NCBI GenBank assembly: GCA_048594975.1
Contig: JBMDXQ010000104.1
Span: 36,552-100,551 of the forward strand
DNA: 64,000 bases
From: Vicinamibacterales bacterium
GTDB lineage: Bacteria; Acidobacteriota; Vicinamibacteria; Vicinamibacterales; 2-12-FULL-66-21
Direction: 5' to 3'
Part shown: one piece after another, positions 38,958-41,003 of the stretch
How positions within the stretch are numbered: position 1 is the stretch's first letter
Layout of the letters: each line of letters begins with the position of its first letter
The notes under the pieces: model-generated
What the model was told of the DNA's origin: nothing
What the model saw: the letters and a program-made list of their open reading frames with translations, nothing else
Database searches by the model: none
Made by a program: the position numbers and the translations under genes

Positions 38958-40691
38958 TCAGCGCCGCCACCCGGCCTCGACGAAGACGTGGTGCTGCTCA
39001 CCGAGATCCCGGGCGGCCGGCGTTACAATTGAGTGATCTCCGATCACAATTTTGCGACCCTGGCGGATAGCTACTCGTACGTCTTCCTCGCATACGAAGT
39101 CCGCAGGTTTTTCCGCCACGGCCGCCGCGGAAGCGGCGGTCGCCGGCGCGAGGGTACTCGACCGGTCCGGCGTGCCCGTCACGGGCGCGTAGCCGCGCGA
39201 GGCGAGGAAGGCGTCGATACGCCGCGCCAGCGGCTCCGCGGCGATGCCGGCGGGGACCGGCTGGGCGGGCGCTTTTGGCAGCGCCTGGGCCATCGGGGCG
39301 GGCGGCGCGGCAGCCGGCGGGGCTGGACTCGTCTCATAGGCGAGCCGCTTGATGTTCAACAAATGCCGCGGCGAGATGTTGTCCGACGTGATGTTGCCCC
39401 CCCAGCCGCCGCATCCGAGCGTCATTGACGGATCGAGCCCGGTCGTCAGCCCGATGGATCCCAGGGTGGTGGGCGTGTTGACGACGATGCGGAAGGCCGG
39501 TTTCTTGAGGCCGAACTGCAGGATGACTTCTTCGTTGCGCGAGTGGATCGCCATCGTGTGACCCATCCCGCCGTAGCGCAGGATCTGCTTGCAGCGCTCG
39601 CAGCCTTCCTTCCAGTCGCTCACGACATAGAAGGAGAGGACCGGGCAGAGCTTCTCGATCGAGAGCGGGTAGTCCCGGCCGACGCCGTCGAGCTCGGCGA
39701 TCAACACACGCGTCCCGGGCGGCACGGTAAGGTCCGCCTGCTGGGCGATGTAGGTGGCCGGCTTGCCCACGAGCGCGGGGTTGGGGAGGCGCTGAGGGGT
39801 GACCAGCAGCCTCGCAACTGCAGCGCTCTCCTCGGTGGTCATGAAGTACGCGCCGTTGCCGACGAACTCCCGCTTTACTTCCTCGACCAGCGGCGCATCG
39901 CAGACGACGGAGTTCTCCGCCGAGCAGAGCAGGCCGTTGTCGAACGTCTTGCCGCGGATGATATCGGCCACCGCCTTCTTGATATCGGCGCTACGCTCGA
40001 TGTAGGCGGGGGCGTTGCCCGGGCCCACGCCGTACGCCGGCTTGCCGGCGCTGTACGCCGCGCGCACGAGTCCCATCCCGCCGGTGGCGAGGATCACGGC
40101 CGTCTCGCGCGCCTTCATCAGCTCCTGCGTCCCCTCGAGGGACACGGTCGTCATCCAGTTGATCGTCCCCTCGGGGGCGCCGGCGCGGCGAGCCGCTTCG
40201 GACATGATCTCGGCCACCCGCGAGATGCATCGGACAGCCGACGGGTGCGGGCTGATCACGATGGGACACCTCGCCTTCATCGAGATCAGGATCTTGTAGA
40301 TGGCGGTGGACGTCGGGTTGGTGGACGGGACGATGGCGGCAACGACCCCGAACGGCTCGGCGATCTCGACGACCTTGCGGTCCTCGAGGCGGCGGATGAC
40401 GCCGACCGTCTTCATCGGCCGGATGAATTTGTAGATCTTCTCGGAGGAGAAGAGATTCTTCTGGATTTTGTCGGCAATAACGCCGAAGCCGGTCTCCTCG
40501 TGGGCCAGCCGGGCGAGCGCCTCGGCCTGCGGGGTCGCGGCGGCGGCCATCGCGTCGACGACCGCGTCGATCTGCTCCTGGGTCAGCTCGGCGAGGACCG
40601 GCGCCGCCGCCTTCGCGCGGCGCGCGAGCGTGCGCGCCTCGTGGATCGAGGCCAGGTCGCGATCGGTCTGCGTCGCCTGTTGGGCGGCCAT
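38958..40691 (-). CDS. Acylating (CoA-dependent) aldehyde dehydrogenase of the EutE/PduP type with long C-terminal extension
   Basis: 577 aa. Contains [11 protein letters not shown] and [12 protein letters not shown] (catalytic Cys region). After about aa 455 there is a Pro/Ala linker, an amphipathic helix [16 protein letters not shown], a second linker and a terminal ~45 aa module [34 protein letters not shown]. It starts 18 nt downstream of the BMC-H stop. Confidence 0.85.
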   Translation of the reverse strand: [577 protein letters not shown]

Positions 40692-40709
40692 GCGCGGCTG
40701 CGGGGCGCG

Positions 40710-41003
40710 CTACGACGCTTTCGCGTCCTTCGCCCGGGGAAGGATCCTCTCGACCTCGGAGTGCGGCCGGGGAATCACGTGCACGGAGATCAGTTCGCCG
40801 ACACGACGCGCCGCCGCCGCCCCGGCATCGGTCGCCGCCTTGACCGCCCCCACGTCGCCACGCACGAGCACGGTCACGTAGCCGGCGCCGATGTACTCCT
40901 TGCCGGCCAGCACGACATTGGCCGCCTTCACCATCGCGTCGGCCGCCTCGATCGATCCGATCAGGCCGCGGGTTTCCACCATCCCCAGAGCTTCGAGCGA
41001 CAT
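40710..41003 (-). CDS. Bacterial microcompartment hexameric shell protein (BMC-H, PduA/EutM/CcmK type)
   Basis: Track ORF is 40710..41183. ATG at 41003 gives [61 protein letters not shown] ... VHVIPRPH, the canonical single BMC domain (97 aa). Confidence 0.9.

Follow-up and report, generated by a model that had tools for sequence, protein, structure and literature searches.

The window analysed here is a 64,000-nt stretch of a draft Vicinamibacterales genome (contig JBMDXQ010000104.1, forward-strand positions 36,552 to 100,551) that encodes, on its minus strand, a BMC-H shell protein of a bacterial microcompartment (BMC) and, directly after it, a CoA-acylating aldehyde dehydrogenase with a long C-terminal tail. 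This gene pair is almost certainly the satellite locus of an ACI-type microcompartment (Acidobacteria, Vicinamibacterales), and the small folded domain that ends the dehydrogenase is, by profile comparison, a member of the same family as the N-terminal module of EutQ and EutT. Together with shell docking as the inferred role of that domain and an unlinked RpiB-DeoC operon as inferred cargo, this reading has in our estimate a probability of roughly 0.85. The pair, including its ~50-aa end domain, is already catalogued, and the published catalogue gains nothing from the locus as such; what is new here is that the ACI domain of "unknown function" is assigned to a family and that a testable candidate for the cargo is proposed.

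In the microcompartment catalogue of Sutter et al. (2021, Nat Commun 12:3809, Supplementary Data 2; PMC8217296), the ACI type is exclusive to Acidobacteria. Its main locus comprises a PF00596 aldolase with a C-terminal encapsulation peptide, a PF00389/02826 hydroxyacid dehydrogenase, a triplet of BMC-P genes and at least one BMC-H gene; the aldehyde dehydrogenase lies on a satellite locus and has, near its C-terminus, an encapsulation peptide, after which comes a ~50-aa domain whose function is given as unknown (PMC8217296). A ~80-aa protein with conserved cysteines is also mentioned for this type, and ACI is listed among the BMC types without an obvious signature enzyme (PMC8217296).

The source genome is a 7.2 Mb draft in 163 contigs, rated 100% complete, with the window on a contig of 165 kb (C7). 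A preliminary description of the window, made from its sequence, had proposed a genome-wide scan for shell genes. With PF00936 we found three BMC-H genes, in the window and on contigs C79 and C154, and with PF03319 three adjacent BMC-P genes, all on C79, so BMC-P is not absent from this genome. The locus on C79 (C79:658-4270) contains a class II aldolase of 279 aa (PF00596) with the C-terminal helix ...IRLTYRELTALIEDAVRNLK, a BMC-H gene, the three BMC-P genes (PF03319) and a D-2-hydroxyacid dehydrogenase (PF00389/PF02826). Upstream of the aldolase is an 81-aa, cysteine-containing open reading frame (ORF; C79:409-654, locus L007) with a hydrophobic N-terminus and weak matches to YHS and DUF7576, below the Pfam cut-offs; it is probably the ~80-aa cysteine protein of the catalogue. 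The C79 main locus starts ~400 nt from the contig end, and genes further upstream may be missing.

An acidobacterial host, a main locus of the ACI composition on C79, and a dehydrogenase on the separate contig C7, paired with a shell gene and ending in an encapsulation-peptide-like helix and a folded domain, are thus all found in this genome. Since every ACI feature that was tested is present, the locus is an instance of the published kind. There is no structural difference from the catalogued type; the catalogue assigns neither a function to the domain nor a signature enzyme to the compartment. Here we relate the domain to EutQ/EutT N-termini and propose a shell-less RpiB-DeoC locus as further cargo. 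Classification against published BMC loci, which the preliminary description had suggested, gave the ACI type; that description had missed that the arrangement, ~50-aa domain included, was already known. It had offered two alternatives, a satellite of a BMC encoded elsewhere or a very reduced compartment; the C79 main locus and the third BMC-H gene on C154 support the first and exclude the second. Its remark that no pentamer, BMC-T or phosphotransacylase gene is recognisable in the window stands: the whole-genome scans gave no PF00936 match on C7 beyond the BMC-H of the window and no PF03319 match on that contig, and PF06130 (PduL-type phosphotransacylase) has no match anywhere in the source genome.

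The third BMC-H gene (C154:174700-175600; locus L008, 8710-9584) is isolated, and it is convergent with and abuts a gene for a MerR-family regulator. It is possibly a separately regulated shell paralogue.

Within the window, the gene layout is as first described. The BMC-H gene (40710..41003, minus strand) encodes a 97-aa protein with a single full-length BMC domain (PF00936, 96.2 bits against a cut-off of 24.5, model positions 1-75 covered) that also matches the EutM-like model NF012018 with 126.8 bits; it is 74% identical to the C79 copy and 65% identical to the C154 copy. After 18 nt (40692-40709) follows the dehydrogenase gene (38958-40691, minus strand), whose 577-aa product matches PF00171 with 81.9 bits. 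The catalytic core (residues 1-453; 39333..40691, minus strand) reaches 600.6 bits over residues 10-452 with TIGR02518, the model for AdhE-N-like acetylating acetaldehyde dehydrogenases, just below the equivalog cut-off of 620.1, and only 226.3 bits with the EutE/PduP-type model NF011927/PRK15398, missing the subfamily threshold of 403. The label "EutE/PduP-type" given earlier is therefore not the best description, and by these model scores the enzyme is a predicted CoA-acylating acetaldehyde dehydrogenase nearer to AdhE-N/TIGR02518. The catalytic-loop Cys256 and many further core residues are invariant in 35 aligned homologues.

The tail of the dehydrogenase consists of four elements, all of which the preliminary description had quoted correctly and all of which are encoded on the minus strand. 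A Pro/Ala-rich linker (residues 454-483; 39243..39332) is variable in sequence and length among orthologues, with a predicted local distance difference test score (pLDDT) below 50 in the full-length AlphaFold2 model. It leads into an encapsulation-peptide-like amphipathic helix (residues 484-501; 39189..39242), predicted as helical over 485-498. A second, low-complexity linker (residues 502-529; 39105..39188) has many gaps and no consensus in orthologues, again with pLDDT <50, and is followed by the C-terminal mini-domain (residues 530-577, folded over 530-572; 38961..39104). Because the full-length model is poor (mean pLDDT 58, with the mini-domain at 83-90), it was used solely for the secondary structure of the tail. 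A separate model of residues 527-577, built on 71 aligned sequences, has a mean pLDDT of 92.5 and gives the order strand (530-533), helix (535-544), strand/hairpin (548-556), helix (558-567) and strand (570-572).

Both structured elements are conserved. In the same 35 homologues, G482, A485, L488, R490, R491, D493, F495, L496 and G500 of the helix region are invariant, as are F532, V533, C534, E535, D537, V538, A541, I548 and V556-D562 of the mini-domain. The helix-face analysis suggested earlier placed L488, I492, F495 and L496 together on one face, with a moderate hydrophobic moment (at most 0.46 in a 15-residue window). Amphipathic and set off by variable, flexible linkers, the helix is a putative encapsulation peptide. 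Canonical EutE/PduP dehydrogenases are likewise acylating enzymes to which a flexible linker joins an amphipathic targeting helix; here, in contrast, the core is AdhE-N/TIGR02518-like, the helix is internal to the tail, and an extra folded domain comes after it. Absence of the extension from orthologues had been named as evidence against the preliminary description; a search with the tail alone (residues 455-577) retrieved at least 1,585 homologues that have it, mostly proteins of 570-600 aa annotated as "acetaldehyde dehydrogenase (acetylating)". The few of these that bear organism names are from Vicinamibacterales.

Standard searches did not assign the mini-domain to a family. The tail alone had no match in Pfam at E values up to 10, so that neither PF12557 nor any other named family could be assigned, and a profile search of PDB sequences gave only chance matches to designed proteins. 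In a profile search of 1.84 billion representative sequences, the best 150 of 682 matches were all fragments of dehydrogenase tails. A word-indexed search with EutQ residues 1-50 returned only near-identical enterobacterial EutQ, too uniform for a diverse profile.

Profile searches of whole genomes pointed to EutQ and EutT. When the complete chromosome of E. coli K-12 was searched with a profile of the dehydrogenase tails (A2), only three candidates came up, of which EutQ (residues 5-39, E 0.17) was first and EutT (residues 3-43, E 0.19) second; these two are adjacent proteins of the eut operon. In the opposite direction, a profile made from just the two N-termini of EutQ and EutT had its best match in the 7.2 Mb source genome at 38985-39101, within the mini-domain (E 0.021). 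When a combined profile was run on 301 Acidobacteriota genomes, dehydrogenase tails were recovered in ~120, and a second tier of matches fell in the N-termini of genes for RpiB, deoxyribose-phosphate aldolase and class II aldolase, usually in the order amphipathic helix, Pro/Ala linker, module, enzyme. A profile of the acidobacterial RpiB tags only, searched against E. coli, matched the N-terminus of EutT at E 1.7e-10, with EutQ second. By hhalign, the RpiB tags align with the A2 dehydrogenase tails at 97% probability (P 3.5e-11) and with EutQ/EutT at 98% (P 4.4e-13). The motif [IV]-[TC]-x-x-D-[IV]-R ... G ... [IV]-T-P-x-A-R-[DE] is common to the tails, the RpiB tags and EutQ/EutT. These alignments make the mini-domain a homologue of the N-terminal module of EutQ/EutT.

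The likeness to EutQ extends beyond the motif. EutQ H1/H2 and the N-terminus of EutT are also modules of ~40 aa with two helices in the same order, and in EutQ, too, a flexible linker stands between the module and a second helical element; both systems are encoded with microcompartments. The ACI module differs in being C-terminal on an enzyme, whereas theirs is N-terminal on an adaptor or kinase, in the reversed order of helix and domain, and in having Cys in place of Thr. In other Acidobacteria (loci L106 and L107, from G021 and G002, and L097, from G059) the module follows an amphipathic helix and is fused to the N-terminus of deoxyribose-phosphate aldolase itself and, in one case, of a class II aldolase. 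Its presence on these enzymes indicates that the tag has moved between cargo enzymes.

The association of the module with shell genes was measured in 80 Acidobacteriota genomes from a phylum sample centred on the source genome, 40 with the dehydrogenase tail and 40 without it. All 40 genomes with the tail contain the BMC-P triplet. The module is present in 43 of the 49 genomes with BMC-P and in none of the 31 without (Fisher p 1.6e-16); within this sample it is confined to genomes that have BMC-P. A tagged RpiB-like gene occurs in 25/40 genomes with the tail and 3/40 without it, all three of the latter having BMC-P (Fisher p 2.9e-7), and in one genome (G033) the tagged gene adjoins the BMC-P triplet.

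What the module may do is suggested by work on Salmonella EutQ, in which residues 1-99 target GFP to the Eut compartment (Sci Adv 2025, PMC12487888). Deletion of residues 9-41 (H1/H2) left the protein with the cargo and detached from the shell; H3/H4, beyond a flexible linker, bind the encapsulation peptides of cargo, and in nuclear magnetic resonance (NMR) experiments H1/H2 were unperturbed by a cargo peptide (PMC12487888). Residues 9-41 are the stretch of EutQ that aligns with the ACI mini-domain. Since elements of both kinds, likewise on flexible linkers, recur in the ACI tail in reversed order, we propose that the tail combines a docking module and a condensate helix. The folded mini-domain would dock the dehydrogenase on shell hexamers as EutQ residues 9-41 do, the amphipathic helix would join the cargo condensate by co-aggregating with other helix-tagged cargo, and the dehydrogenase would in effect be a core enzyme with a built-in EutQ-like adaptor. 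By analogy with EutQ, the balance tips slightly in favour of a shell-docking role for the mini-domain.

An exchange of roles has also to be considered, in which the mini-domain would serve cargo-cargo association (core nucleation or oligomerisation) and the amphipathic helix would bind the shell, following the classical encapsulation-peptide model. The helix is conserved as strongly as the domain, and several different cargo enzymes bear the same module and could self-associate. In work cited by PMC11585597, encapsulation peptides of the classical type reportedly bind between the tiles of the shell. We nevertheless think this arrangement unlikely: the cargo peptides of EutQ are bound by H3/H4 and not by the H1/H2 region to which the mini-domain is homologous, and it was H1/H2 that the cargo peptide did not perturb in NMR (PMC12487888).

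More doubtful is a function as a small ligand-binding or regulatory module, sensing a nucleotide, CoA or a sugar phosphate and tuning enzyme activity within the compartment. The invariant E535, D537, R561 and D562 lie at the N-termini of the two helices, a common site for phosphate or other ligands, next to the invariant Cys534, and the proteins that carry the module (EutT, EutQ, RpiB, DeoC, aldolase and the dehydrogenase) all handle phosphorylated or nucleotide-containing ligands. A sensor of this kind is difficult to reconcile with a module that is confined to genomes with BMC-P and sits on flexible linkers at protein termini, usually behind an encapsulation helix. In addition, the equivalent region of EutQ is required for shell association (PMC12487888), and Cys534 is not conserved outside the dehydrogenase tails.

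If the module docks enzymes on the shell, genes that encode it are candidates for cargo wherever they lie. In the source genome a tagged RpiB gene is found in an operon on contig C70 (C70:29088-32578, minus strand; locus L092) with the order amidohydrolase, phosphoribosyltransferase, RpiB, DeoC, and with no shell gene nearby. RpiB matches TIGR01120 and has the N-terminal module MKRFDIITETDARTLDVGATVELSPGGHVTPLARD; DeoC matches TIGR00126 with 270.7 bits and has a helix-bearing, Cys-rich N-terminal extension of 70 aa that starts SPEELRRLVEIVTEEVLAAQ. RpiB and DeoC are adjacent in 10 loci that were fetched. DeoC produces acetaldehyde, together with glyceraldehyde 3-phosphate, from deoxyribose 5-phosphate, and acetaldehyde would, from the family assignment, be the natural substrate of a TIGR02518-like enzyme. 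In the proposed pathway, the tagged RpiB-DeoC pair of C70 would supply the aldehyde by converting deoxyribose 5-phosphate to acetaldehyde and glyceraldehyde 3-phosphate, and the dehydrogenase would convert the acetaldehyde to acetyl-CoA inside the shell.

This proposed chemistry resembles that of SPU (sugar-phosphate utilisation) microcompartments, in which DeoC (DERA) and RpiB are the signature enzymes and both have N-terminal extensions (Commun Biol 2024, PMC11585597). The two systems share these extensions, absent from housekeeping homologues of DeoC and RpiB, as well as an acylating dehydrogenase that would use acetaldehyde and a shell with a BMC-P triplet. They differ in that DeoC and RpiB lie here in a shell-less locus beside purine-salvage genes and that there is no PduL-type phosphotransacylase; moreover, the SPU paper describes a helix and linker and not a folded module (PMC11585597). 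The comparison makes the C70 operon a candidate source of ACI cargo that is not linked to shell genes, and suggests an acetaldehyde-producing, SPU-like chemistry. Our literature search found no paper linking Acidobacteria, microcompartments and deoxyribose.

A broader proposal can be framed, to which we would give even odds: the domain would be a member of an unnamed, widespread ~45-aa shell-docking family, bipartite with the helix and portable to either terminus, RpiB-DeoC would be the missing ACI signature enzymes, and ACI would be a deoxyribose-phosphate/acetaldehyde metabolosome whose dehydrogenase has its own adaptor. With the EutQ/EutT assignment, a domain that well above a thousand proteins of soil Acidobacteria contain acquires a candidate function that can be tested, shell docking. 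The assignment also suggests that a folded tag, and not the classical helix alone, may mark microcompartment cargo. Searches with the module can in addition trace cargo genes that are remote from shell genes, and point here to deoxyribose-phosphate aldolase and RpiB. If true, an abundant and functionally cryptic organelle of soil Acidobacteria would gain a concrete, assayable chemistry.

Several points weigh against an ACI satellite with EutQ/EutT-type docking and RpiB-DeoC cargo. "Satellite" means here that the loci are on different contigs of a draft and that the flanking sequence, over at least 38 kb, contains no BMC gene. The direct comparison of A2 with EutQ/EutT is weak (E 0.17 and 0.19; hhalign 40-44%), and the strong evidence comes by way of the RpiB tags, themselves picked with a profile that included EutQ and EutT, so that there is some circularity. 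Foldseek of the mini-domain model against the PDB gave no meaningful structure, with a best E of 0.46. Cys534 is invariant in the dehydrogenase tails, but RpiB, EutQ and EutT have Thr at this position; in its tail version the module may have an additional role. ACI shells have no trimer of the EutL type, the proposed partner of EutQ alongside EutM. Tagged RpiB was found in only 25/40 of the ACI-type genomes sampled, and the genome-wide absence of PF06130 leaves the chemistry downstream of the dehydrogenase incomplete.

The 3' end of the dehydrogenase gene has an unusual codon composition. The preliminary count was exact: at 39024..39113 (minus strand; residues 527-556), 17 of 30 codons end in A or T, compared with 65 of 577 over the whole gene. 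Such a window occurs in nine of 2,664 long ORFs of the source genome that are GC-rich at third positions (51 of 954,752 windows), several of the nine looking mis-framed; the scan left out the first 30% of each ORF to avoid over-extended starts. The A/T-ending patch is therefore real and rare. Comparison with orthologues, proposed earlier, showed a rise in the fraction of A/T-ending codons over the entire tail, although a milder one (0.26-0.33, against ~0.15 in the core), and did not bear out a foreign segment. Third-position entropy across orthologues is 1.34 in the tail and ~1.1 in the core, synonymous sites in the mini-domain being more variable and not less. By these comparisons the patch is the lineage-specific extreme of a weak tendency that the whole family shows at the 3' end of the gene, and it is not evidence of a graft.

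Three other explanations of the patch were tried and rejected. The higher third-position variability of the tail and the intergenic position of the only promoter-like site (38913-38885) argue against an embedded or overlapping nucleotide element. The nearest relative argues against recombination or grafting: it is the same locus (L009) for the tail (82% nucleotide identity) and the core (84%), with tail and core identities correlated across loci (Spearman rho 0.69). The patch is not a property of the module itself, as the RpiB copy in the source genome has a normal A/T-ending fraction of 0.11.

That the two genes alone form a much reduced, self-contained compartment for aldehyde handling, with a terminal element grafted recently and marked by foreign codon usage, is scarcely credible: the lack of other BMC genes on the 165-kb contig and the rarity of the A/T-ending patch would fit it, but it is ruled out by the scan of the whole genome for shell genes (which found two further BMC-H genes and the BMC-P triplet elsewhere), by the BMC-P triplets in every sampled genome that has the tail, and by the conservation data, namely the number of homologues sharing the tail, the common nearest relative of tail and core, and the milder tail-wide rise and higher third-position entropy in orthologues. 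The terminal module had been described as a recently grafted or a shell-docking element; homology to the shell-binding region of EutQ favours docking by inference, and recent grafting is contradicted by the same homologue and nearest-relative data.

Within the patch, AATTGT direct repeats stand on either side of a perfect palindrome, GTGATC-GGA-GATCAC (39033-39047, minus strand; codons for IVIGDHS). Orthologues, which mostly have GERT there, do not share the palindrome, and it is probably due to chance. Three apparent orthologues with extreme A/T-ending fractions (L053, L070 and L076, from metagenome-assembled genomes, MAGs) have frameshifted or truncated tails. These reflect assembly errors or pseudogenisation and mimic extreme codon anomalies unless filtered.

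The neighbourhood of the pair is conserved, and the neighbours are functionally unrelated, as noted earlier: the window flanks encode a LysM/SLT lytic transglycosylase, a protein without a Pfam match, an SLT protein and a type II secretion system F protein. Of 80 related loci, 78 have a BMC-H gene immediately upstream of the dehydrogenase, and 74 have a LysM/SLT lytic transglycosylase gene downstream of it. By record title, all but one of these loci are from Vicinamibacterales/Vicinamibacteria or Acidobacteria/Acidobacteriota. The exception (L065, CAYHHH010000016.1) is titled "uncultured Bifidobacteriaceae bacterium" and has a typical Vicinamibacterales neighbourhood of BMC-H, dehydrogenase and MltD; it is probably a mis-binned or mis-labelled MAG contig.

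A search for sigma-70-like promoters found one site, against 0.2 expected, between the dehydrogenase stop codon and the LysM/SLT gene. This site, TTGACC-17-TATAGT with a TG extension (38885..38913, minus strand), agrees at 10/12 positions and is a consensus match only. It lies ~140 nt upstream of the likely start of the LysM/SLT transglycosylase (38746), and its position before this gene suggests that the LysM/SLT gene may be transcribed independently.

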